A program made the position numbers and the translations under genes. A stretch of DNA of 64,000 nucleotides from a virus. Its lineage: Duplodnaviria; Heunggongvirae; Uroviricota; Caudoviricetes. Below are positions 1,196-55,756 of this stretch, in pieces. The stretch is from the IMG/VR virus record IMGVR_UViG_3300005918_000016; one strand, 5' to 3'. The number at the start of each line of letters is the position of its first letter. The first letter of the stretch is position 1. A model generated the notes under the pieces. It ran no database searches. It was not told the DNA's origin and saw only the letters and a list, made by a program, of their open reading frames with translations.

Positions 1196-2095
1196 ATGAT
1201 GACGCTTTGGATGAAACTGGCGGTCTTAGCCGTCCTGGGGACAACGACCCCGGAGCAGACCACCCACCCTGCATATACCCCGTACTCTTACGACCAGACC
1301 CTCACTGCAGTGGCGGAGACCATCACAGCGGAAGAGGCTGAGTTGATCCTCACCGTTGACGTGGAGGAGGAGATCAACTACTGGATGATCAAGGAGCACT
1401 TCGGGTTCGATGACACCGTAATAGAGGACATCCTACATGTGGCCTTGCACACGGCAGAGGAGCCGATGCTCATCGCCCACATTGTTTCCACGGAAAGCGG
1501 TGGGGACCGTGACGTCATCAACTACTGTAAGGTGTGGGGTGAGCCCTTCTACAACGAGAGCAAAGAACGCTGGGAGAAGAAGTGCGTCAAGCTCGGCTCC
1601 TGCTACACGAACTGCCGGAAAAAGCGGCATGTTTGGAGGAACCACCTCGACGTCGGTCTGTATCAGCTTCGGGACGTGGTCGAGCGGGTCGGTGGCCCTG
1701 AGGACTCCAAGCGGTTCTGCGGGTGGTCCTGGTTGCGAGACTTTGAACGGGACACGGGTCGGGATGTGTCCTCTGAGTGCGCCCTGGAGCGTTTCTGTGC
1801 CCGTGACGCAATGATCCACGCCGTACACACCCTCCGGGAGGAACAGCTTGCAGCGGCCCACAGGGGCGTTGGTAAGGCCAACTGCCGGGGTCTCCCTGAC
1901 GAATGGAAGTGGATGGGCCTGTGGAACGGTTGCAAGAGCGCCAGGAACCATGCAGACCACACTGCTCCCCTGGTTGAGATGCGGGACTTCCACGTCCGTC
2001 TGACGATGTTGCGGTACCGTATTGATGAGATTGCCGAGAAATGGCCGCTCTTGGGCTACCTCATTGTGCCCCTGAAAGGACAAAAGGTAGTTTGA
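1196..2095 (+). CDS. secreted SLT-like (lytic transglycosylase-like) protein
   Basis: RBS AGGAGG 8 nt upstream of ATG. N-terminal hydrophobic signal-like segment. ESGG and GLYQL motifs resemble SLT-domain E-S and GLMQ motifs. GAGTAG box at 1165. Confidence 0.5.
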   Translation: MMTLWMKLAVLAVLGTTTPEQTTHPAYTPYSYDQTLTAVAETITAEEAELILTVDVEEEINYWMIKEHFGFDDTVIEDILHVALHTAEEPMLIAHIVSTESGGDRDVINYCKVWGEPFYNESKERWEKKCVKLGSCYTNCRKKRHVWRNHLDVGLYQLRDVVERVGGPEDSKRFCGWSWLRDFERDTGRDVSSECALERFCARDAMIHAVHTLREEQLAAAHRGVGKANCRGLPDEWKWMGLWNGCKSARNHADHTAPLVEMRDFHVRLTMLRYRIDEIAEKWPLLGYLIVPLKGQKVV

Positions 2096-2124
2096 AGCAG
2101 GGCAGACGCAATATAAAGAGTCGA

Positions 2125-2148
2125 GTCGTATCCTTTGACAAAGGGTAC
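2125..2148 (+). repeat. 5' portion of a CRISPR-repeat-like unit (GTCGTATCCTTTGACAAAGGGTAC) interrupted by a mini-IS
   Basis: Matches repeat positions 1-24 with point changes. Separated from the 3' portion at 2497-2510 by the inserted element. Confidence 0.6.
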
Positions 2149-2496
2149 TTGACAGTGCCCTTCATACCTGCTAAAGTCTAACTGTTCCTGCTTGAAACAG
2201 GGAGCTGTTGCGGCAGGAAAGCTCATGCTGATTGGGTAGGAGGTTCTGGTGTGCCCAGATGTTCTGGGGACGAACGCATCAAAACTAACGATCATCCGAG
2301 AGGCATAAAACGAGTGCTAAGAGAGCGATTCCGTGTTAAACGGACCAGTTCCTTGGGATTCGGACGGAAGGAGCAACCGTCATTCGAGCCCTTACCGTTG
2401 GGCCGGAAGTTTACTACCGAGGTACTTGGGACACCAAGATTCGGCACAGCTTCAAACTTGATGCCTGTTACATTTTAGCAGGTTTTAAGGAACGGT
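2143..2496 (+). mobile_element. MITE-like deletion derivative of a TnpB (IS200/605/607-type) element: left end fused to the last ~280 nt (tnpB 3' end, omegaRNA, right end)
   Basis: Left end GGGTACTTGACAGTGCCC...CTTGAAACAGG is shared with the full copy at 55573-55646. Internal junction at 2216/2217 joins the left end directly to tnpB codons (CGRKAHADWVGSAG). Right end terminates ...GGTTTTAAGGAACGGT, as in all four copies. Confidence 0.7.
2217..2496 (+). ncRNA. omegaRNA (reRNA)-like scaffold of TnpB element, orphan copy
   Basis: About 280-nt block conserved in four copies (2217-2496, 19520-19800 minus, 35221-35506, 54133-54430 minus). It overlaps the tnpB 3' end and reaches the right end, which is the expected omegaRNA position. 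Confidence 0.55.
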
Positions 2497-2510
2497 ATGT
2501 GGATTGAAAC
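2497..2510 (+). repeat. 3' portion of the interrupted CRISPR-repeat-like unit (ATGTGGATTGAAAC)
   Basis: Identical to the repeat 3' handle GTGGATTGAAAC immediately after the mini-IS right end. Confidence 0.6.
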
Positions 2511-2628
2511 ACGATGTTGATGTTCCACCTTGATGACCTGACTCAGGAGTGGCCGCTCAGGGGGCTGGATCAACGCTCCTAAAAGTCGGGGCCTTGTGGT
2601 TGTGCGTTTTTGACGGTTAGGAGAACGG

Positions 2629-13562: not shown

Positions 13563-15428
13563 ATGCGAGTTGCATCCGTTGAGAAAGTACCGGGACCCAG
13601 AAGAGCCTTTGATCTGACAATCCGCAATACGTCCTGTTACTTTGTGGGGCCTGGAATTTTAGCACACAACTGTGGGATGAGATACGAAAACAGGAAGCTA
13701 GTGCAGGCGCTGACACGGGGCGACGGGACGATAGGCGAGGATATCACCCGGAACGTCCTGCTGATGAAGGGTGCAGTCAAGGTACTGCCCCCGACGTTAC
13801 CGGATGGCACCCCCACCCCAGACGATGTGTGGGTGCGGGCCGAGGTTGTGGTGACCCACGATGACTTCGTCACCCACTTCAAGGGCGAATCCAACCCCCG
13901 TAACACGGCGAGCGGCACTGCGAAACGTCAAACTGACAACAGCAAATGTGCCTTCCTGACGGTTATCTGCTATCAACTCCTGCCCGGTGGTCGCCCGATG
14001 GCGTCCAAGAGCGCCGAGTTGAAGGCCCTGGCCACGATGGGCTTCCAGGTACCCCGCTGGGGTGAGTACAAGGGACTGGCAGCAGTGGAGGCCCTCTACC
14101 AGGACTACATCGCCACCGTCAGGAAGAGCCTGGGTTACGATATCGACGGGCTGGTGATCGAGGTGGCTGACGCCAACGCCCGTGCGATGCTTGGGGAACT
14201 GAACAACCGCCCCAAGGGTGCCTGCGCTTATAAGTTTCCTCATGAGTCCAAGCCGACCACGCTGCGGAGCATCCGTTGGCAGGTAGGCAACAGCGGGCGC
14301 ATCACCCCGGTGGCCGAATTTGACGTTGTGAACCTCGCAGGGGCGAACGTCAAACAGGCGAGCCTTCACAACATCAGCAACATCGAAGGGCTGTGGGGCA
14401 AAGCCACTGTTCCGGTACCCGGCGACGCAATTCTCGTTTCTCGCAGAAATGATGTTATCCCCTATGTAGAGGAAGTCCTGAACAAGTTCGGTACAGGCAC
14501 GGGACTCCGCACCCCGACCCAGTGCCCCTCCTGCCAGGGAGCCTTGGTGCGGGACGGCGAGTACCTTGTGTGCCGCAGCGAGGAGTGCCCCGCCCAGGCA
14601 ACCGGGGCCATCAGACGCTGGGTCAAGAAGCTCGGTGTCCTACACGTTGGCGAGACCCTGATCGACGCAATGGTGGATGCGTTCCCTTTCACCCTCACCG
14701 AGGAAGTGTTTGAAGTCACCTTCGGCGTAAAGAAGGATGACGTGAAGACCCTCCCGGCAGCGGATCAGGAACGGATACGCAACGCCCCAATGGACATCGC
14801 TGACCTCTACAACCTGGACCTGGACGAGGTCGCCTCCCTGGAGTTGAGCGGACGGCGTGTCGGCGGCTCGGCGGACAAAGCCCTCAGGAACCTTAACGCC
14901 AAGAAGACGCTGCCCCTGCACGTCCTGATAGGGAGCCTGGGTATCCCCCTGATCGGGCGCAGCATGGCCAAGGTGGTTGTGGACGCTGGATACACCACCC
15001 TGAACCTGCTCTTCAAGGCCAAGGTGCATGTTCCCATCGTCACCAGGGGCAAGACCCTCCCGGCAGTTGCCAGCATCCCTGGAATGGGGGACACGAAAGC
15101 GCTGGCCTTCGTGACGGGATTTGCTGCCAAGGCCGGGCTGATCGTCAAGTTGCGGGCCACGCAAGACCTTGGCGGAGCCGACATCACCATCCAGGACATC
15201 TCCGGGCCGTTGCTCGGGATGACCTTTTGCCTGACTGGCACCCGTGAACCCGCCCTGCTCGATGCTATCGAAAAGGCGGGTGGCACAATGAAGGGCAGCG
15301 TGTCCAAGAAACTATCCTACCTGATCGCCCTGGACCCGGACAGTACCTCGGGCAAAGCGAAAAAGGCCAAGCAGTACGGCGTGAAGGTGATCGGCTTGGA
15401 CGAGGCGTACAAGCTGGCGGGGGTGTGA
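13563..15428 (+). CDS. ligA: split-intein C-half (36 aa, ...GILAHN) fused to the NAD-dependent DNA ligase C-terminal extein (Cys4 Zn finger, HhH, BRCT)
   Basis: MRVASVEKVPGPRRAFDLTIRNTSCYFVGPGILAHN|CGMRYENRKLV...TRGDGTIGEDIT continues the LigA sequence after KLDG. CPSCQG...CRSEECPAQ zinc finger. C-terminal BRCT-like region. Confidence 0.75.
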   Translation: MRVASVEKVPGPRRAFDLTIRNTSCYFVGPGILAHNCGMRYENRKLVQALTRGDGTIGEDITRNVLLMKGAVKVLPPTLPDGTPTPDDVWVRAEVVVTHDDFVTHFKGESNPRNTASGTAKRQTDNSKCAFLTVICYQLLPGGRPMASKSAELKALATMGFQVPRWGEYKGLAAVEALYQDYIATVRKSLGYDIDGLVIEVADANARAMLGELNNRPKGACAYKFPHESKPTTLRSIRWQVGNSGRITPVAEFDVVNLAGANVKQASLHNISNIEGLWGKATVPVPGDAILVSRRNDVIPYVEEVLNKFGTGTGLRTPTQCPSCQGALVRDGEYLVCRSEECPAQATGAIRRWVKKLGVLHVGETLIDAMVDAFPFTLTEEVFEVTFGVKKDDVKTLPAADQERIRNAPMDIADLYNLDLDEVASLELSGRRVGGSADKALRNLNAKKTLPLHVLIGSLGIPLIGRSMAKVVVDAGYTTLNLLFKAKVHVPIVTRGKTLPAVASIPGMGDTKALAFVTGFAAKAGLIVKLRATQDLGGADITIQDISGPLLGMTFCLTGTREPALLDAIEKAGGTMKGSVSKKLSYLIALDPDSTSGKAKKAKQYGVKVIGLDEAYKLAGV

Positions 15429-19463: not shown

Positions 19464-19519
19464 ATCAATGACACGAACCGATGCTGCTGCTATCCTTGAC
19501 TGCCCCGAGGAGGTACTCA

Positions 19520-19800
19520 ACCGTTCCTTAAAACCTGCTAAAATGTAACAGGCATCAAGTTTGAAGCTGTGCCGAATCTTGGTGACCCAAGTACCTCGGT
19601 AGTAAACCTCCGGCCCAACGGTAAGGGCTCGATTGACGACCGCTCTAATCGCCCGAATCCTAAGGAACTGGTCCGTCGAAGACGGAATCGCTCTCTCAGC
19701 ACTCGTTTTACGCCTCGTGGATGATCGCCAGCTTTGGTGTGTTCATTCCCAGAACATCTGGGCACACCAGAACCTCCTACCCAATCAGCATAAGCCTTCC
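19520..19800 (-). ncRNA. omegaRNA-like scaffold, orphan copy
   Basis: Conserved ~280-nt block. Confidence 0.55.
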
Positions 19801-19873
19801 TGCCACAACAGCTCCCTGTTTCAAGCAGGAATAGTTAGACTTTAGTAAGTTTGAGGGGTACTGTCAAGTACCC
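19520..19873 (-). mobile_element. second MITE-like TnpB-element derivative (left end plus omegaRNA/right end, no tnpB)
   Basis: Same left-end/internal-deletion junction as the 2143-2496 copy. Right end ...GGAACGGT at 19520 (minus). Confidence 0.7.
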
Positions 19874-19890
19874 TCCACCATGGGGATTGT

Positions 19891-20217
19891 GTGGGGGCAG
19901 ATTCTGAGGCTGACTCTGTTGCTGAGGAGCTTGGTTTGTACCGTGTCACACACCCGCCTGAAAACCCGAAAAACCGAGCCTACTGTGTAGCTGATGAAAC
20001 CCATCCCCTCAAACCCTATACCGTCCGTGACCATGACATTGTAGACGCCTCTCAAATTCTAGTGGCGTGCTCGAAAGCAATGCATGAGATACAGCGCTCA
20101 GGTACATGGGCAACCGTCAGGTATGCTCAAAAACGGAAACGCCCCGTCCTGGTCGTTTGGCCGGATGGCACTGTCGGCACCTTGTGGTATGGTGCTGTTG
20201 GGACTAAGCTACATTAG
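19891..20217 (+). CDS. hypothetical protein (start uncertain; 5' end abuts the mini-IS left end)
   Basis: ORF begins at a GTG 18 nt from the element end. Confidence 0.3.
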   Translation: MGADSEADSVAEELGLYRVTHPPENPKNRAYCVADETHPLKPYTVRDHDIVDASQILVACSKAMHEIQRSGTWATVRYAQKRKRPVLVVWPDGTVGTLWYGAVGTKLH

Positions 20218-21020: not shown

Positions 21021-21626
21021 ATGTCCGTCAAATTCACCAAGAAAGGCATTGCCATCGAAAAGGGTACCACTCCCCCCTCGTGGGAGGACACCGACCAGCA
21101 GTATCAGGAGTACGTGGGCCACCAGCTTCTCAAAGCTCGACTGGAGCACCTGAAAATCTTGGAGGAAATCGCAGGGGTGCTGCCCGTGTTCGAGGAACGG
21201 CACCTCCTCAATATGGAGGCGCATCAGGCAGCGATGATTTACCTGAACCTCCCGGATCCAGGCCCCCTTTTCCCGAGCTACCAACGAAACTTTATCACCA
21301 TGAACACCACGGTAATGGACCCTGCAATTTCCTGTGCCGGGGTGATGCCCCATGTCAGGGTACTTCTTGGGTGGCTCGCTTTTCCTGAGACAATCCGAGA
21401 AGGCGTCTGCTACCACCTCTTGACGGCGGGACGTGCTCTTTACCCTTTTGGATACGACTCAGGCCGTTCGGGTTTCACCCTCCTCCAGGAGCGTGTGGGA
21501 CACTGCGTCGCTGCCGGTCTCGCTGCCTGTGAAAAACTCGGTTTTGATGGTACAAGGACGCCCCGGAAATCGGTGGTTGAACAACTCGTCCAGACTGCGG
21601 CCCTTCTCACGGAGGACACCGAATGA
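21021..21626 (+). CDS. hypothetical protein
   Basis: RBS AGGAGG. Confidence 0.45.
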   Translation: MSVKFTKKGIAIEKGTTPPSWEDTDQQYQEYVGHQLLKARLEHLKILEEIAGVLPVFEERHLLNMEAHQAAMIYLNLPDPGPLFPSYQRNFITMNTTVMDPAISCAGVMPHVRVLLGWLAFPETIREGVCYHLLTAGRALYPFGYDSGRSGFTLLQERVGHCVAAGLAACEKLGFDGTRTPRKSVVEQLVQTAALLTEDTE

Positions 21627-22390
21627 GCACCGCAATCATCGTACTCGGTCATGGTGGTGGGATCCCCGTCCCTGGGATGGGCAACACGAACTTCGCCATC
21701 GTCCCGAATGCCCCCAGAGGGATCCCCGGACCAGAGTTGCTCCAAAGCCATCCCTTCTGGTTGGTCGACTGCGGACCAGAGACCCTCGCCACCCTGGTCG
21801 GGTTGCGTGCCCTGAAGAACCTGAAGGGGATCTTCATCACGCACGTACACTACGATCACACTGGGGGCCTACTCGGGCTGGCCTACACCTTCAAATACAT
21901 GTTGAAGCGCAAGATCCCTCTCGTGATCCCCAGCAAGCTCCAAGTGCTGCTGGAACAAACGATGGTGGAGTTGACACGGACATCAGGTGGCCCAGCTAAC
22001 GTGTGGTTGGACTACTGGCAGGGCTGCTTCCTGGGGAATGGTGCTGACCTGGAGGTGGAGGGTTTCACGGCGGAGTTCTTCCCCGAGGATCACAACATCG
22101 AAGATTTCCCTGTCTATGGGGTCAAGATCCGGGTGCCCTCCTTGCGTAAGGTTTACTTCACAGGCGACACCGTTAACCCCTCGGACAAGGACGCAGACAT
22201 CATCTTCCAGGACTGTCAGGTCTACGGGGACGATTCCAAGTACGACGTCCACTGTTCCTACCAAAAAATCCTCCAGGCGTTCCCCGAAGGATGCCGGGAA
22301 CACGTCATCCTCTGTCACTGCCCCCCGCAACCGCAGTTCGAGGAGGACGGTTTCAAGCACGCCACGCAGTGGAGAGTGTTTTACGTCTGA
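21623..22390 (+). CDS. MBL-fold metallo-hydrolase (HxHxDH: THVHYDHTGG)
   Basis: Canonical metallo-beta-lactamase motif II. Immediately followed by a solitary CRISPR-like repeat. Confidence 0.6.
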   Translation: MSTAIIVLGHGGGIPVPGMGNTNFAIVPNAPRGIPGPELLQSHPFWLVDCGPETLATLVGLRALKNLKGIFITHVHYDHTGGLLGLAYTFKYMLKRKIPLVIPSKLQVLLEQTMVELTRTSGGPANVWLDYWQGCFLGNGADLEVEGFTAEFFPEDHNIEDFPVYGVKIRVPSLRKVYFTGDTVNPSDKDADIIFQDCQVYGDDSKYDVHCSYQKILQAFPEGCREHVILCHCPPQPQFEEDGFKHATQWRVFYV

Positions 22391-23179: not shown

Positions 23180-23365
23180 ATGGAGCCCATCCTTCTGACT
23201 ATCAACGAGGTTGCCCGTTTGTTCGGGATGCACCCAAATTCGATCCGTAAACTCATGGGCGATGGCAGACTACCCTTTCTTAAGATCGATAAGTCGCTGC
23301 GGTTCGAAACTGATGCCGTGATGCTATTTATTGAGAAACTCAGGAAACAGAGAGCGAAGGATTGA
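23180..23365 (+). CDS. small HTH DNA-binding protein (excisionase/MerR-like)
   Basis: LTINEVARLFGMHPNSIRKLMGDG helix-turn-helix. Confidence 0.5.
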   Translation: MEPILLTINEVARLFGMHPNSIRKLMGDGRLPFLKIDKSLRFETDAVMLFIEKLRKQRAKD

Positions 23366-24761
23366 CGTCTTGAAAGTCACTCGCATTCTTCAGGCAGATG
23401 TTCCGCCTGCTTTGTTGCAGGTGTGTCGAGCTACCAGATTTCTTCGTGCAGATGTCTGGCGTCGGTACGGTGCCCTGAAGAACGTGGGTAAAAGTGCCTT
23501 GGCTATCCGTAAAGAAATTGTAGCAGGTGGCATCTACGTCACTCTCGCCATAGACGGGACCATACGTAACGAAACAACCAAAGATGTCGTGAACGACATC
23601 CTGTTCTACAAAGCAGCAGCGAAAGGAAAGGTTCGCAAAGCCATTTGGCAGCGCACCGACAATGAAATGGAACGCAAACGACTCTACACGCTTCTGCGAT
23701 CAGACGCATGGATGGAGGATCCCTTCCTTCACCGCCAAATGCGTAAACACTTCAAGCACGGCGTCTCACACACGAAAAATCAGTTTATCGTGAGGTCCGA
23801 CAAATTCAAAATAGAGCACGTTAATGGGTATCTGACGATCGTCATCCAAATTGCCCGTAAATACGGTGACGACATAGTTCTAACGACAACGTCAAACGGC
23901 ACGAGTGTGGATCTGAGTAGCTGTAACCTACGCATCATTGTGAAGGGTGGTACAACTGAGATCCACTACAGCGTGGATAAAAGCAGTGGGCGTCCGCATG
24001 GTAGCCGGACGCTGGGCGTTGATAAAGGCTACACCGAAGCATTTGTTGATTCGGATGGTGAGCATCAGGGTGAGCAGTTCGGTGCTGTGATGACTGAGTA
24101 CAGCGACAAGGTCAGCAAGACGGGTTCCGCTAGAAACAAGTTGTACGCCCTAGAAAAAAAGCATCGTCAAAGCGGAAACTCCAGAAAAGCTGACAACATC
24201 AGGGCACACAACCTTGGGTGTAAAAAGATTGATGCTCGTAAACGATTGGCTCAAACACGACTACGGGGTGTAGCCTTTAAGGCTGCTCATGCCATCGTGG
24301 ATAAGGCAGCGGTGGTCGTGTCAGAAGACTTAACCTCTCCGATCGCAAAAAAGCGACCTTGGAAAAGGTTTAATAGAAGAATGAGTGGCTGGGCAAAGGG
24401 AGCACTTGCTGAGGCCCTCGATTCAGTTTGTACGCAGCGTGAAGCCAGCCATGAGTTGGTAAACTGTGCTTACACATCGCAAATGGACTCTGTAACGGGT
24501 TTGCTGCAAGGCAAGCGTGTTGGAGACAAATTTTACCGTATTAACGGGGATGTTATTCAGGCCGATCACAATGCTGCGCTGAACGTGTTAGCCCGGTTGT
24601 CTGACAAGGACATCGGGTGTTTCACCCCTTATCAAGAGGTAAAACGCATCTTGTTGGCACGTTCTCCGGCGGAACTGACCGTCAAAAGGCACGAGTTGCA
24701 GTCGAGAGGCTCTCAACCGTGTGCGGATAAACCCTCACGATCAGGAGTGATCAATGCTTGA
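23331..24761 (+). CDS. divergent TnpB/RuvC-like nuclease lacking zinc-finger cysteines
   Basis: GVDKGYTEAF (RuvC-I-like), VVVSEDL (RuvC-II E), ADHNAALNV (RuvC-III). The usual CxxC...CxxC ZnF between RuvC-II and III is absent. Confidence 0.5.
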   Translation: MRNSGNRERRIDVLKVTRILQADVPPALLQVCRATRFLRADVWRRYGALKNVGKSALAIRKEIVAGGIYVTLAIDGTIRNETTKDVVNDILFYKAAAKGKVRKAIWQRTDNEMERKRLYTLLRSDAWMEDPFLHRQMRKHFKHGVSHTKNQFIVRSDKFKIEHVNGYLTIVIQIARKYGDDIVLTTTSNGTSVDLSSCNLRIIVKGGTTEIHYSVDKSSGRPHGSRTLGVDKGYTEAFVDSDGEHQGEQFGAVMTEYSDKVSKTGSARNKLYALEKKHRQSGNSRKADNIRAHNLGCKKIDARKRLAQTRLRGVAFKAAHAIVDKAAVVVSEDLTSPIAKKRPWKRFNRRMSGWAKGALAEALDSVCTQREASHELVNCAYTSQMDSVTGLLQGKRVGDKFYRINGDVIQADHNAALNVLARLSDKDIGCFTPYQEVKRILLARSPAELTVKRHELQSRGSQPCADKPSRSGVINA

Positions 24762-33004: not shown

Positions 33005-33154
33005 ATGGCCCACGAGTATGAATCCAAGCGAGCGACGGTCAAGGTCCTGCGTGCCGACAACTTCCTGGTTATCGTGACCGAAGACGGCGACATCTACTAT
33101 TGCAAGCGCACGGGTACGCTCAAACACGTCGTCGGGGGCACCAAGGGTGCATGA
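33005..33154 (+). CDS. small hypothetical protein (49 aa)
   Basis: AGGAGG RBS. Confidence 0.35.
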   Translation: MAHEYESKRATVKVLRADNFLVIVTEDGDIYYCKRTGTLKHVVGGTKGA

Positions 33155-33232
33155 GCAGCAACCAAAAACCTACCTGACTCTCCTTTTTTCTCGGTGATCC
33201 TTTTATAACCTCCACGTTGGTATAGTGGAGGC

Positions 33233-33439
33233 ATGAAACGAACCATGATCGTCCGAGTGACCACAACCGAATTTGAAACGTCTGATGGACGGGTGATCCC
33301 ACACCCCATTCCGTTTGATCCCGATGAGGTGCCTACCGTCGAAGAGTTCCAACAACAGTACAACAGGTGGCGCAAGGTCTTTGAAGATCAAGGACTGGTG
33401 TTTCCCATACCTGATGCGGGAGATGAGGATGCTGACTGA
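33233..33439 (+). CDS. hypothetical protein
   Basis: Preceded by the hairpin CCTCCAC...GTGGAGG. Confidence 0.3.
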   Translation: MKRTMIVRVTTTEFETSDGRVIPHPIPFDPDEVPTVEEFQQQYNRWRKVFEDQGLVFPIPDAGDEDAD

Positions 33440-34070
33440 TCGTCTCCTAGCTCTCACCAAAGCAGCCGAAGCTCTTGGTGTTCACCGGAATACGCTTCGG
33501 GACTGGGCTGATGAAGACAAGATCCCTCACGTTCGCACCGTGGGTGGGCATCGCCGTTTCAAGCAATCAGACATTGACAGGTTGCTGGGCAATCTCCCAA
33601 TCGATAAACAGCAAACGGAACGAGTTGTTATCTACTGCCGTGTGTCCAGCCACGATCAGAAAAAGTCAGGCGATCTTGAACGTCAGGCTGGACGGGTCAC
33701 GATACACAGCATCACGAAGCAGTACAAGTTGGTCGAAGTGCTTCAAGACGTTGGGTCGGGCATGTCAGACACACGCCCAAAACTCCGAAAGTTGTTCAAA
33801 CTGGTCAATGCCCATGAAATAGATAGGGTGGTTGTTGAACACAAAGACCGCCTGACTCGCTTCGGGTTCAATCTGGTCAATGCTTACTTCAACAGTCATG
33901 GTGTCACCATCGAGTGGACACAAGAAGTCCTTGGCAAAGGCTATCAGGAAGAGTTGGTCGAAGACATTTTGACGCTCATGTCGTCGTTCTCCGCTAAGAT
34001 TTATGGCAAACGTTCGGCAGAACGACGTAAGGCCAAGAAAGCAGCAGAAGCGGCAGAGACAGTCAAATGA
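33424..34070 (+). CDS. tnpA: IS607-type TnpA (MerR-like HTH plus serine recombinase)
   Basis: N-terminal HTH (LGVHRNTLRDWADEDKIP); VVIYCRVSSHDQ catalytic-Ser region; resolvase fold motifs. Confidence 0.75.
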
Positions 34071-35491
34071 AATGTCGCATCTTCCGACTTCATAAAGATA
34101 CCAATCAGTCCAAAATCGACAAGTTGGAAGTCCTACACAATGCCTACGTCAAGTACGTCCGTATCTGCGTACAAACGATGCTTGACCAGCGGGTCTATAA
34201 TCTCCCGAAAGCCGCCAAACAAACGTTCTTCCCACGGGCCACCAACCTTACGTCTCAGATCGAAAAGAACGCACGAGACCATGCAATACAAATCGTGAGC
34301 GCTTGGGCGAAAGCTACTTATGCTCGTAAGTTGAAGCCAACCATTACCAACCTTAAGCATGACGGTACCCTTACCGATCAGGATGCCAAAGCACTCTATG
34401 TCATCGGATTGAAGTCCATCAGTAAACCGTGGAAAGTTATTACTCAAGACCATCTCGACGCCTACCACACCCTGTTGGACACCTACGGAGGTAATAAGCC
34501 TATCGTAAGAAACAACCTACCCATGAGGTTGTCGGAGATGACGGCTCGATTGGAAGATACATCGAAGGCCCCTCTCGGGGATTTCTGGCTGAGAGTATCC
34601 TCGTTAGAAGCTCGTAAGTCCGTCTGGTTACCCCTCGTTGGGAATCCTTACATCCAACAGGCTGATCAGGTCAGTAAAGGCATTTCGGTCCGCAAGACCA
34701 AGCGAGGCTTCTGGCGCTTTGAAGCTGTCAGCAAGGCCGAGTGGGCCGTTCCTGAAGCACAGGAGGGTTGGCCTAAGTTGGGCGTTGACGTTGGTCTGAA
34801 CGTCCTTGCAGCTACCTCAGATGGAGTGACCTATGGTGAGCACGTCAAGCCCAAATTCGATAAGCTCTATGCTCGTGTCAGAAATCTCCGAGCAAATCGC
34901 CAACGACAGGATTTGAAAGACAACAGTCCAAGGTTAGATCACCTTGAGAGCAAGTTGAGTGGGTTGATCAAGACAGAAACGGGTCGTGTGGTGAATACCC
35001 TCATCGCCCGTCATCCCGAGACGGTGTTCGTAGTCGAAGATCTTGATCTTCGAGGTTGCCGGGGTCAAAAGCGGTTCGCTTACAGGGCGTTACAGATCAA
35101 CTTGGAAAGGAAGGCTCCAACAAAGAAAGTGAACCCTGCTTACACGTCGCAGGAGTGTCCTTCTTGTGGTTATGTTCATCGAGGAAACCGAAGTTCAATA
35201 AGGTTCCGTTGCCGCTGTTGTGGCAGGAAGGCTCACGCTGATTGGGTAGGAAGTGCTGGTGTGCTCAGACGTTCTGGGAACGAACACATTGGAACTGGTG
35301 ATCACCCACGAGGCGTAAAACGAGTGCTGAGAGAGCGATTCCGTCTTCGACGGACCAGTTCCTTGGGATTCGGGCGAAAAGAGCAACCGTCATTCGAGCC
35401 CTTACCGTTGGGCCGGAGGCTTACTACCGTTGGATCAGATTCGTCTGGCAGCGGCACAGCTTCAAACTTGATGCCTAGTAGATTCAAGTAG
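34067..35491 (+). CDS. tnpB: TnpB (RuvC-like, zinc finger)
   Basis: GVDVGLN (RuvC-I), VVEDL (RuvC-II), CPSCG...CRCCG ZnF, HADWVGSAG (RuvC-III). About 90% identical to the 54106-55572 copy. Confidence 0.85.
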   Translation: MKCRIFRLHKDTNQSKIDKLEVLHNAYVKYVRICVQTMLDQRVYNLPKAAKQTFFPRATNLTSQIEKNARDHAIQIVSAWAKATYARKLKPTITNLKHDGTLTDQDAKALYVIGLKSISKPWKVITQDHLDAYHTLLDTYGGNKPIVRNNLPMRLSEMTARLEDTSKAPLGDFWLRVSSLEARKSVWLPLVGNPYIQQADQVSKGISVRKTKRGFWRFEAVSKAEWAVPEAQEGWPKLGVDVGLNVLAATSDGVTYGEHVKPKFDKLYARVRNLRANRQRQDLKDNSPRLDHLESKLSGLIKTETGRVVNTLIARHPETVFVVEDLDLRGCRGQKRFAYRALQINLERKAPTKKVNPAYTSQECPSCGYVHRGNRSSIRFRCRCCGRKAHADWVGSAGVLRRSGNEHIGTGDHPRGVKRVLRERFRLRRTSSLGFGRKEQPSFEPLPLGRRLTTVGSDSSGSGTASNLMPSRFK

Positions 35492-35506
35492 GTTTTGAGG
35501 AACGGT
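35221..35506 (+). ncRNA. omegaRNA-like scaffold overlapping the tnpB 3' end
   Basis: Conserved block shared with three other copies. Confidence 0.55.
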
Positions 35507-36449: not shown

Positions 36450-36883
36450 GCATCTCGATAACGCCTTACAGCACGGCTCAGGCCGTCTGGGACGCCTACA
36501 TCAAGAGCATCTCGGAGGACGCCGGGGTTGACCTAACGGAGTGCTCCATGGAGGCGGTCAGCGCCGAGGGCGACGACGTCAGTGTCCCCGTTCAGGACAT
36601 GCTCGGCTTCATCGAAAGGATGGGGGCCTGGGGCTGGGTAGAAGAAGCCACCAACGAGATCCACATCTGGTTCGAGGAAGGATGCTCCCCCAGGCGGAAG
36701 CTCCAGGTGCTCGGACACGAGCTTGGGCACGTGCTCACGGACAACCCCTTCGAGCCCGGAGGCCAGACCGAGGATCAGCGTGTTGTGGAGGACGAACAGC
36801 GGGCCGACTTGGTCAGCGACCTGATCCTCCAGATCGTGGAAACTGCTGGTCTACTGGAACCGGAGGTTACTGATGAGGGCTGA
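36440..36883 (+). CDS. HExxH metallopeptidase-like protein (LGHELGHVL, ImmA/IrrE-like)
   Basis: HELGH motif. Confidence 0.4.
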   Translation: MPLSISITPYSTAQAVWDAYIKSISEDAGVDLTECSMEAVSAEGDDVSVPVQDMLGFIERMGAWGWVEEATNEIHIWFEEGCSPRRKLQVLGHELGHVLTDNPFEPGGQTEDQRVVEDEQRADLVSDLILQIVETAGLLEPEVTDEG

Positions 36884-53830: not shown

Positions 53831-54144
53831 CAATGAAAAGTCACGAAACGATCATCGTCGAACAAACGGTCTCGGACGGGGACTCGGGCTGGATTCACGG
53901 GATGATGACTACCGTCATCCGTTTCATTGTGCCCGAGTTGGACAACCTCGCAATCACCGTTCACAAGGACAGGCTGTACATACTCACCGGCTTCGACCTG
54001 AAGGAGGCACCCGACACCAAGGTCGTGGGGCACTGCCAGCTTCCCGCCGAGACGGTCAACAAAGCCCTGGCCTATGCTGATGCCAAAAAGGAAATCATCA
54101 AAATCCTACAGCCCCTTGTGGATGAGCACATCACCGTTCCTTAA
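53827..54144 (+). CDS. hypothetical protein
   Basis: ATGA overlap. Confidence 0.4.
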   Translation: MTMKSHETIIVEQTVSDGDSGWIHGMMTTVIRFIVPELDNLAITVHKDRLYILTGFDLKEAPDTKVVGHCQLPAETVNKALAYADAKKEIIKILQPLVDEHITVP

Positions 54145-55572
54145 AACCTGCTGGAATGTAACAGGCATCAAGTTTGAAGCTGTGCCGCTGCCAGACGAAT
54201 CTGATCCAACGGTAGTAAACCTCCGGCCCAACGGTAAGGGCTCGATTGACGACCGCTCTAATCGCCCGAATCCCAAGGAACTGGTCCGCTTAACACGGAA
54301 TCGCTCTCTCAGCACTCGTTTTACGCCTCTCGGATGATCGTTAGTACCGATGTGTTCGTCTCCAGAACGTCTGAGCACACCAGAACTTCCCACCCAATCA
54401 GCATGAGCTTTCCTGCCGCACGAGCGGCAATGGAACCTTGTTGAATTTCGGTTTCCTCGATGAACATAACCACAAGAAGGACACTCCTGCGAAGTATAAG
54501 CTGGGTTCACCTTCTCAACCGGAGTCTTCCTTTCCAAGTTGACTTGTAACGCCCTGTAAGCAAACCTCTTTTGACCCCGACAACCTCGAAGATCAAGATC
54601 CTCAACCACGAACACTGTCTTAGGATGACGAACGATAAGGGTGTTTACTACACGACCCGTTTCTGTTTTGATCAACCCACTCAGTTTGCTCTCAAGGTGG
54701 TCCAACTTTGGACTGTTGTCCTTTAAGTCCTGTCGTTGGCGATTTGCTCTGAGATTCCTGACACGAGCGTAGAGTTTATCGAACTTGAGTTTGACGTGTT
54801 CACCATAGGTCACGCCATCTGATGTAGCTGCGAGCACATTCAAACCAACGTCCACACCCAACTTAGGCCAACCTTCCTGTGCTTCAGGAACAATCCATTC
54901 GTCCTTGCTGACCGCCTCAAAACGCCAAAAGCCTCGCTTGGTCTTGCGGGCTGAAACACCTTTGCTAACTTGGTCAGCCTGCTGGATGTAAGGATTCCCA
55001 ACGAGAGGTAACCAGACGGACTTGCGAGGTTCTAACGAAGACACCCTCAGCCAGAAATCCCCGAGAGGAGCTTTAGTTGTGTCTTCCAATCGAGCCGTCA
55101 TTTCTGACAACATCATGGGCAGGTTGTCCCTTACGATAGGCTTATTGCCTCCGTATGTGTCCAGCAGAACGTGGTAGGCGTCGAGGTGGTCTTGGGTAAT
55201 GAATTTCCATGGCTTACTGATGGATTTTAATCCAATGGTGTAGAGTGCTTTGGCGTCTTGTTCGGTAAGGGTACCATCGTGTTTGAGATTGGTGATAGTC
55301 GGCTTCAATTTGCGAGCGTAAGTGGCCTTGGCCCAAGCGCTCACGATCTGGATGGCGTGGTCTCGTGCGATCTTTTCGATTTGGGATGTAAGGTTGGTAG
55401 CTCGTGGAAAGAACGTCTGTTTGGCGGACTTCGGGAGATTGTGGGTTCGCTGGTCGAGCATTGTTTGTACGCAGATACGGACATACTTGACGTAGACTTT
55501 GTGCAGGGCTTCCAACTTATCGATTTTGGACGGGTTGGTGTCCTTGTGAAGTCGAAAGATGCGACACTTCAT
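54106..55572 (-). CDS. tnpB: TnpB (RuvC-like, zinc finger)
   Basis: About 90% identical to the 34067-35491 protein; all RuvC/ZnF motifs intact. Confidence 0.85.
   Translation of the reverse strand: MKCRIFRLHKDTNPSKIDKLEALHKVYVKYVRICVQTMLDQRTHNLPKSAKQTFFPRATNLTSQIEKIARDHAIQIVSAWAKATYARKLKPTITNLKHDGTLTEQDAKALYTIGLKSISKPWKFITQDHLDAYHVLLDTYGGNKPIVRDNLPMMLSEMTARLEDTTKAPLGDFWLRVSSLEPRKSVWLPLVGNPYIQQADQVSKGVSARKTKRGFWRFEAVSKDEWIVPEAQEGWPKLGVDVGLNVLAATSDGVTYGEHVKLKFDKLYARVRNLRANRQRQDLKDNSPKLDHLESKLSGLIKTETGRVVNTLIVRHPKTVFVVEDLDLRGCRGQKRFAYRALQVNLERKTPVEKVNPAYTSQECPSCGYVHRGNRNSTRFHCRSCGRKAHADWVGSSGVLRRSGDEHIGTNDHPRGVKRVLRERFRVKRTSSLGFGRLERSSIEPLPLGRRFTTVGSDSSGSGTASNLMPVTFQQVLRNGDVLIHKGL
54133..54430 (-). 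ncRNA. omegaRNA-like scaffold
   Basis: Conserved block at the tnpB 3' end/right end. Confidence 0.55.
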
Positions 55573-55646
55573 TTACTAACCTCTGATTCCTGTTTCAAAC
55601 AGGAATAGTTAGATTTTAGCAACTAAATCGGGTGCTGTCAAGTACC
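54133..55646 (-). mobile_element. TnpB-only IS200/605-like element (IS1341-type organisation), full length
   Basis: Left end GGGTACTTGACAGCACCC... at 55634-55646 (minus), right end ...GGAACGGT at 54133; no tnpA. Confidence 0.7.
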
Positions 55647-55756
55647 CTTACAAGGAAGACGTGGAGAACGACTCCACGCCCGTGTGAATGTGTAAAGACT
55701 GTCGGGACATGGTAGCATAGGAGGTCTGATGTCAGAAGTCAATACACAGCCCAGCC

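Follow-up and report, generated by a model that had tools for sequence, protein, structure and literature searches.

What are two 354-nucleotide (nt) pieces of transposon DNA without a protein-coding gene of their own, and are they still in use? The question is raised by a 64,000-nt stretch (hereafter the window) of the tailed-phage record IMGVR_UViG_3300005918_000016, which corresponds to approximately positions 340,105-404,104 of JGI contig Ga0208769_1000001 (528,260 bp). Each piece joins the left end of a tnpB element to the region that, in full elements, specifies the omega RNA (ωRNA), the guide RNA of the TnpB nuclease, and ends at the right end of the element. We consider it likely that these "minis" are non-autonomous elements of the IS607 insertion sequence (IS) family that supply their own ωRNA and depend on the transposase TnpA and on TnpB provided in trans.

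The two copies are 354 nt each and approximately 90-91% identical end to end, an alignment that bears out the coordinates, strands, common structure and identical breakpoint proposed for them in an initial annotation made from the sequence alone. Their features are as follows, with L numbers denoting loci fetched for comparison.

2143-2496, plus strand: mini1, a complete protein-less element, 100% identical in L005.
2206-2496, plus strand: mini1 ωRNA scaffold region, forming 85 of 85 consensus pairs.
19520-19873, minus strand: mini2, a complete protein-less element (left end, ωRNA region and right end), 100% identical in L159 and L007.
19811-19873, minus strand: mini2 left end, 63 nt, homologous to stand-alone tnpB left ends and ending at the GC-microhomology junction.
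19520-19810, minus strand: mini2 ωRNA scaffold region, the former tnpB 3' end plus the right end, finishing ...GGAACGG(U) and spanned by an 85-pair conserved structure.

The homology between the copies has sharp limits, starting at GGGTACTTGACAG (GGGTAC...) and finishing at GGAACGGT. As the right-end 18-mer occurs four times in the window (at 2496, 19520, 35506 and 54133) against 0.06 occurrences expected, and a 22-nt internal core also occurs four times against 0 expected, the repeat pair is not a product of chance; the left-end 13-mer occurs exactly three times. Two longer elements in the window provide the parts from which this structure can be understood.

54133-55647, minus strand: stand-alone tnpB element with the left-end type of the minis, tnpB (open reading frame, ORF, 54106-55572), ωRNA and right end.
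33145-35506, plus strand: IS607 copy with tnpA (33429-34070), tnpB (34067-35491) and a right end at 35506 of the same family as that of the minis; 33145 is a provisional left boundary.

Over their first 63 nt, the minis match the left end of the stand-alone element, as well as those of L006 and L011, and the remaining approximately 290 nt match the 3' end of both window tnpB genes up to the right end. The joined structure given by the initial annotation therefore stands, with corrected lengths (approximately 70 and 280 nt had been proposed). The tnpB-derived part begins at the second CxxC of the zinc finger (CGRKAHADW), and the junction is the same in both copies, with 2 nt of GC microhomology between the left end (...CAGGAAGC) and tnpB (...CCGC-TGTTGTGG). 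The internal deletion took the Shine-Dalgarno sequence, the ATG and approximately 380 tnpB codons. The resident TnpB element, from which the initial annotation had derived the copies, is not their closest relative, as the minis are 88-90% identical to the full element L004/L006 from other genomes versus 82-86% to the two resident tnpB copies; the minis belong to an older, dispersed family whose source is not the two resident copies. The label of miniature inverted-repeat transposable element (MITE), also applied to them, fits in part. As with bacterial MITEs, the minis are small, non-coding and multi-copy and reflect the internal deletion of an IS, but unlike MITEs they have no terminal inverted repeats (GGGTAC... 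against ...GGAACGGT) and no target-site duplication, and they carry a structured guide RNA and a promoter.

Relatives of the minis were sought in IMG/VR and in JGI metagenome scans, in addition to exact-protein look-ups. Several viral and metagenome genomes carry the identical junction, at seven distinct sites whose flanks are unrelated:

the mini1 site, also present in L005;
the mini2 site, also present in L007 and L159;
the site in L001, L002 and L003, the same as L161;
the site in L012 and L096;
the site in L013, the same as L164;
the site in L097 and L098;
the site in L163.

As the junction is identical in every copy, the minis have a single origin. They are 85-92% identical among themselves, and the mini in L096 is a 3'-truncated version of that in L012. 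L163 and L164, two unrelated sites, carry L013-type minis without a single difference over 353 nt (100% identity), which indicates recent movement. An empty counterpart of the L164 site was detected at approximately position 253,315 of the window's own contig (L168/L169, 3335-3338), where the sequence reads ...GGATGCTAG-CGGT-ACTGTTACCTAAGG..., compared to ...GGATGTTAG-GGGT[ ACTTGACAG...GAGGAACGGT ]ACTGTTACCTGAGG... in the occupied, syntenic and 91-94% identical L164. In short form, GCTAG-CGGT-ACTGTTACC is empty and GTTAG-GGGT[ACTTG...AACGGT]ACTGTTACC is occupied. This comparison shows a precise insertion with GGT common to both junctions and no target duplication, and it sets the DNA inserted per mini at 350 nt, with the first GGGT, or equivalently the last GGT, common with the target. 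These observations bear directly on the alternative that the window copies are in-place deletion scars of full elements, inherited vertically, which the initial annotation had named as a finding that would overturn its reading. The window genome does hold full elements, as such scars would need, but different genomes share this deletion junction, at seven sites bordered by unrelated DNA, the empty site shows the insertion of an already-deleted form, and the same mini is identical at two sites; we regard this alternative as exceedingly improbable.

Exact flank searches of IMG/VR for empty mini1, mini2 and L001-type sites returned none, or occupied sites only. BLASTN of the mini against phage and plasmid collections and a conserved-core scan of genome contigs gave no match. 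A scan for the left-end pattern yielded 67 stretches, of which seven belonged to loci already known; the other 60 were new, and of these L125 alone, which is the left end of L004, matched the element.

The segment kept by the minis folds into an extensive and conserved structure. RNAalifold was applied to an alignment of 13 right-end regions (five minis and eight full or partial full elements, 71-100% identity), and the consensus contains 85 pairs in 15 helices over columns 6-291, essentially the whole segment that the minis retain. With the partners as predicted, 98.5% of consensus-pair cells are paired, a figure that falls to 47.5% or less if partners are displaced by 1-3 columns, and compensatory change is seen at 16 pairs, compared to 0-6 in these displaced controls, a level reached by none of 500 shuffles. 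Helix 13 changes its sequence completely between lineages while keeping its pairing (CTTGG/CCAAG, CAGA/TCTG and CAGG/CCTG). An idea that one form of this hairpin is specific to minis was ruled out, as the full elements L004 and L006 carry the mini form. Each mini forms 83-85 of the 85 consensus pairs, and of the 22 base states private to minis, unpaired columns hold 12, whereas nine of the others keep their pair and one breaks it. In a single-sequence fold, the mini2 RNA from its predicted start to the right end reaches -126 kcal/mol (z = -5.4). In four or more full elements, the homologous region is on the same strand as tnpB, begins within the 3' end of that gene and extends to the right end, which is the position of an ωRNA. 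The retained segment matches no catalogued RNA, as Rfam returned no match at gathering score across the window and, for mini2 at E values up to 10, nothing but one chance match, with RAGATH-18 not matched.

The fold is conserved after coding has been lost. Variable sites in the minis fall evenly on the three codon positions (20/18/22; mini-private states 7/8/5), compared to a third-position excess in the 5' third of full copies. A zinc-finger Cys has become Tyr in two minis, and the His of AHADW, next to the RuvC Asp, has become Tyr in three. The 75-amino acid (aa) mini ORF has no Pfam or NCBIfam match, and a protein search with it matched four mini-ORF clusters without yielding any full TnpB, a result that is not a census of full elements. 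On this sequence evidence, coding constraint is gone from the minis, in agreement with the proposal of the initial annotation that the segments encode no protein but keep the whole ωRNA region, and that the small ORFs called here are mere translations of it. Alternatively, the selected product would be not the RNA but a peptide of 75-78 aa, started at an internal GTG and corresponding to the basic tail at the TnpB C-terminus. This has some points in its favor, namely that AGGAGG stands 7 nt before the in-frame GTG in four of five minis (full copies have AGGAAG or GGGAAG), and that gene callers predict the ORF in four protein clusters. The frame is also open in all five aligned minis, but with approximately 20 private changes about one stop is expected by chance, which leaves the open frame uninformative. 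In addition to the even codon-position variation and the lack of family matches, the G that distinguishes AGGAGG occupies a paired column (alignment column 37; G-U versus A-U), and the C-terminus is not conserved, as one full copy has the frame continuing past the right end into flanking sequence. We therefore hold the peptide explanation to be very unlikely.

The left end, although short, contains more than a boundary. It carries a strong sigma-70-like promoter, TTGACA-17-TAAAGT, which in the minis lies approximately 30 nt upstream of the retained RNA region; the minis match the consensus at 10 of 12 positions and the full element at 11 of 12. The TTGACA is invariant in 8/8 aligned left ends, and the promoter hexamers are kept in all copies. 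An inverted motif pair, CCTGYT/ARCAGG, is present in the mini left end and again near the right end; as inverted motifs of 6-7 bp are known in the ends of CboIStron, these pairs are candidate binding motifs of the serine transposase (TnpA_S).

19839-19867, minus strand: mini2 promoter, TTGACA-17-TAAAGT, 10 of 12.
2149-2177, plus strand: mini1 promoter, TTGACA-17-TAAAGT, 10 of 12, with TG before the -10 hexamer.
19815-19829, minus strand: mini2 left-end hairpin, CCTG-CTTGAAA-CAGG, read from the sequence.

The ends follow the logic of IS607. Left flanks have a purine followed by GGG in 10/10 independent cases, and right ends finish (C/T)GGT in 12/12, followed by unrelated sequence. This pattern, a GG core with RGGG on the left and ACGG on the right, identifies IS607-type ends, in agreement with published IS607 systems, in which TnpA_S uses a GG core, the transposon-adjacent motif (TAM) is GGG, TGGG or GAGGG, and the right end and scaffold finish in CGG, which is not a TAM, so that occupied sites are spared (10.1101/2023.11.20.567912, 10.1101/2023.08.09.552727, PMC11061315). 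The T after GG is invariant on both sides and peculiar to this mini/TnpB family. In such systems, the guide adjoins CGG, the scaffold finishes UCGG, and the TAM is GGG and not CGG (10.1101/2023.08.09.552727, 10.1101/2023.11.20.567912). By the position rule of IS607 TnpB ωRNAs, the flank beyond the right end is the predicted guide.

19500-19519, minus strand: predicted mini2 guide, TGAGTACCTCCTCGGGGCAG; with a scaffold finishing at CGG, the T at 19520 would be its first base, one position earlier.
2497-2516, plus strand: predicted mini1 guide, ATGTGGATTGAAACACGATG, which opens with 14 nt forming the 3' part of a CRISPR repeat.

No second target for either guide was found in the window. A match of the L001-type guide to window positions 36734-36749 (minus strand, 15/16) was set aside as chance, as it has no flanking homology and no RGGG directly upstream, and approximately 0.03 such matches are expected over all tests. 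The empty L013-type site described above has CGG where occupied sites have GGG, and one mismatch to the would-be guide in the first 20 nt past the junction. By likeness to ISXfa1, this allele would escape cutting, and it may represent either TAM escape or an ancestral state.

The flanks also reveal what the window copies struck, and neither of these targets, nor the left-end promoter, appeared in the initial annotation. Mini2 interrupts a conserved phage gene.

19456-19519, plus strand: ATG-initiated N-terminal stump of the gene split by mini2.
19874-20217, plus strand: C-terminal part of the split gene (HHGDCVGAD..., the HHGDC part from 19876), SLOG/YpsA-like family.

Intact homologues of 130-150 aa have a contiguous ...(L/F)HHGDCVGAD, and the conserved Leu before HHGDC is restored if at least one base of GGGT is kept. 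A profile hidden Markov model of the homologues scores 148-150 bits for every junction register and so does not discriminate among the possible native N-termini. No near-identical uninterrupted allele of this gene was present in the databases searched. Mini1, in turn, splits a solitary degenerate CRISPR repeat.

2125-2146, plus strand: left 22 nt of the solitary repeat, GTCGTATCCTTTGACAAAGGGT, the last 4 nt overlapping the first 4 of mini1.
2497-2510, plus strand: right 14 nt of the split repeat, ATGTGGATTGAAAC.

Rejoined as GTCGTATCCTTTGACAAAGG-GT|ATGTGGATTGAAAC, the repeat matches the array consensus at 31/36 positions, and taking out 350 nt in the register of the empty site restores the 36-nt repeat length. 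It lies approximately 1 kb beyond a CRISPR array, with the ORF 1196-2095 between them. The array (1-1114) runs off the window start and holds at least 15 copies of the 36-nt repeat GTCGCATCCTCTAACAAAGGATGCGTGGATTGAAAC, of the type I-C-like GTCGC...GCGTGGATTGAAAC family, spaced 71-77 nt start to start and degenerating towards the right. The target motif AAAGGGT of the split repeat is also present in three array repeats; because of TAM-proximal differences from the array repeats, self-targeting of the array by the mini1 guide would be unlikely. No cas gene was recognised among the window ORFs scanned, comparison of the spacers with the window and with all fetched loci gave no significant match, and a CRISPR-repeat scan found only the unrelated terminal repeat of a Paenibacillus array.

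The proteins on which the minis would depend are encoded in the same window. TnpA (33429-34070) matches the NCBIfam IS607 transposase family (transpos_IS607) with 196 bits against a cut-off of 110, as well as Pfam Resolvase and HTH_17/MerR, and is accordingly a serine transposase with an N-terminal helix-turn-helix (HTH). Its gene is the only candidate transposase gene in the window, the minis themselves being without tnpA, and no Y1 transposase was noticed among the window ORFs scanned. The two window TnpBs (474-488 aa) are 91% identical and have Cas12f1-like TNB and OrfB_IS605 domains, and the element at 54133-55647, whose tnpB ORF continues through the right end into the flank, is a candidate source of TnpB in trans. 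Both TnpB ORFs run approximately 80 aa past the end of the TnpB profile, across the whole ωRNA region, and substitutions in the last approximately 150 nt of tnpB show no preference for third codon positions, full copies included; the RNA, and not the protein, has probably shaped this tail. Recognition of the mini scaffold by the resident TnpBs is plausible.

Some further observations were made on these genes. The tnpA-bearing copy seems to begin at GGGTGCATGAGCAGCAACC, with AA before it and weak similarity to other left ends. A 68-aa ORF of no matching family lies upstream of tnpA (33233-33439), and the stop codon of the gene upstream of this copy falls within the putative left end. A third, divergent TnpB-like gene of 476 aa (23331-24761, plus strand) is accompanied by a small HTH ORF (23181-23365). 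Its product scores 62 bits against NCBIfam guided_TnpB, also matches PHROG 506 "transposase" and is 29% identical to the other two TnpBs over the RuvC region; it is without the zinc-finger cysteines and keeps QADHNAALN.

Several observations weigh against our proposal. The structure was predicted from the same alignment, of related sequences, in which pairs and compensatory changes were counted, and the tnpB-derived frame is still open. The tnpA-bearing copy has a left end different from that of the minis and an altered right-end hairpin motif (CCTG/CAGG changed to CCTA/TAGG), so that the resident TnpA is no more than a candidate for recognition of the mini ends. A search of IMG/VR returned no close TnpA relative (one match, 32% identity), though IMG/VR genomes carry minis, and the helix-13 hairpin of the resident tnpB copies differs from that of the minis. 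Mini2 is present in two contexts shown, with 22 further places grouped with them as similar; these contexts, together with the 90% identity of mini1 and mini2, argue that neither copy moved recently in the window genome. In addition, most polymorphisms among the minis are common to full elements and occur in patches, with only 20-22 base states private to minis. Much of their variation thus arrived through recombination with full copies, and the apparent selection on minis may be partly imported. One such recombinant is L162 (2893-3300), an L001-type mini up to the last 41 nt that both parents have in common before the right end, within which the crossover falls, followed by the right-end variant (AATGGT) and right flank of an L006-type full element. 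As a 41-nt overlap is too short for an assembly join at k=141, this is probably a real molecule. The IMG/VR contig of L005 (1-2364 compared) is 100% identical to window positions 1221-2496 and unrelated directly past the right end, where methyltransferase-like genes follow, reflecting either right-end-associated recombination or rearrangement, or an assembly path through an identical copy.

The shared variation, the recombinant L162, the truncated copy in L096 and the contexts of mini2 would all be expected if the minis were inert relics whose RNA is no longer made or used, their conservation being due to youth and to gene conversion from full elements. The minis are 8-15% apart, however, and each keeps 83-85 of the 85 pairs; pairing survives nine of the ten private changes in paired columns while coding features decay; the promoter hexamers persist in every copy; and the identical copy at two sites is a mark of recent activity. 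On balance, the relic explanation appears unlikely, although less so than the scar or peptide explanations, and we continue to favor guide-supplying elements that are served in trans.

The following course of events would account for the minis as such elements. Their ancestor arose once, when a stand-alone tnpB element lost the sequence between left-end position 63 and approximately tnpB codon 380 across the GC microhomology; the loss took with it the ribosome-binding site and almost all of tnpB and fused the left-end promoter to a complete ωRNA scaffold and right end. That promoter would transcribe the approximately 300-nt scaffold past the right end, such that the flank becomes the guide, and TnpB from intact family members would bind the resulting ωRNA. 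An IS607 serine transposase would excise and integrate the mini via the GG core, at RGGG(T) and with no target duplication. The TnpB-ωRNA complex may then cut the empty site (RGGG TAM and guide match), either after excision or in a co-infecting genome without the insertion, and recombinational repair from an occupied copy would restore or spread the mini, a form of homing.

A bolder version of this model, which we put forward only as a speculation and judge to be rather unlikely, is that the minis act as guide-only "satellites" of TnpB, multi-locus gene drives among co-infecting huge phages. Each mini would bring a promoter and a guide against the unoccupied allele, and one TnpB gene would police several loci and cut rival genomes. 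The CGG allele at the empty L013-type site, the recombinants that break at or close to the right end (L162 and L005) and the presence of mini1 in a CRISPR repeat next to an array might be traces of such conflict, a reading that is similarly doubtful. The placement of mini1 also brings an ωRNA module naturally together with CRISPR repeats, an arrangement that has been invoked to explain how type V systems arose.

The concept of protein-less elements that bear an ωRNA is already known, and the conceptual step made here is modest. Meers et al. (2023) described palindrome-associated transposable elements (PATEs) that often encode ωRNAs needing TnpB in trans (PMC10055086). The IS605 PATEs of Geobacillus stearothermophilus resemble the minis in being non-autonomous and protein-less, with both ends and an ωRNA for TnpB in trans, and they are mobilised in trans by TnpA (PMC10055086), the role that TnpA_S would play for the minis. 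They differ in that their ends are palindromic and a Y1 (HUH) transposase moves them in single-stranded form (PMC10055086). The transposase associated with the minis is a serine recombinase, their ends are of IS607 type, they reside in huge-phage genomes, and their promoter is fused to a scaffold of approximately 290 nt.

Among IS607 systems, ISXfa1 (10.1101/2023.08.09.552727), CboIStron/IS607 (10.1101/2023.11.20.567912) and ISFba1 (PMC11061315) share with the family described here a serine TnpA with a MerR-type HTH, a tnpB 3' end that overlaps the ωRNA, a G-rich TAM (predicted in the present case), a CGG right end and scarless insertion without duplication. The minis, unlike these, have neither tnpA nor tnpB. 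The family as a whole departs from published IS607 elements in its long TnpB (474-488 aa) with a tail of approximately 80 aa from the ωRNA region and in the invariant T after GG at both ends, and its scaffold is approximately twice the 144-nt ISXfa1 scaffold (10.1101/2023.08.09.552727) and matches no Rfam family. Engineered "mini-IS" donors, consisting of a gene-free left and right end, are excised efficiently by CboTnpA_S in trans, and a 40-bp left end and a 60-bp right end are sufficient for excision (10.1101/2023.11.20.567912). Compared to these laboratory constructs, the minis are natural and dispersed and keep 63 nt and approximately 290 nt, which includes the whole ωRNA beyond a minimal right end. 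We found no description of a natural IS607-type protein-less ωRNA element in the open-access literature. What is new here are the serine-transposase-type ends, the huge-phage host, the promoter fused to a long uncatalogued scaffold, and the occupied, empty and TAM-variant alleles that are public.

The nature of the host is suggested by its other genes. Near mini2, a gene at approximately 21623-22390 (L159, 4386-5153) has precomputed Pfam matches to anti-Pycsar Apyc1 and metallo-beta-lactamase, and a NAD-dependent DNA ligase gene is present at 13563-15428; in combination with the 528-kb contig and the relatives in IMG/VR, these suggest a huge phage.

If TnpB does use the minis in trans, guide and nuclease would be separable mobile modules in IS607 as well, and not just in IS605 PATEs, and this separation would occur inside half-megabase phage genomes. 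The natural deletion, together with covariation, would then define the functional extent of a long (approximately 290 nt) uncatalogued ωRNA. The minis disrupt phage genes, land in CRISPR repeats and serve as recombination substrates. As public metagenomes already contain alleles of all three kinds (occupied, empty and TAM-variant), these elements offer a simple natural setting in which homing could be tested among phages.

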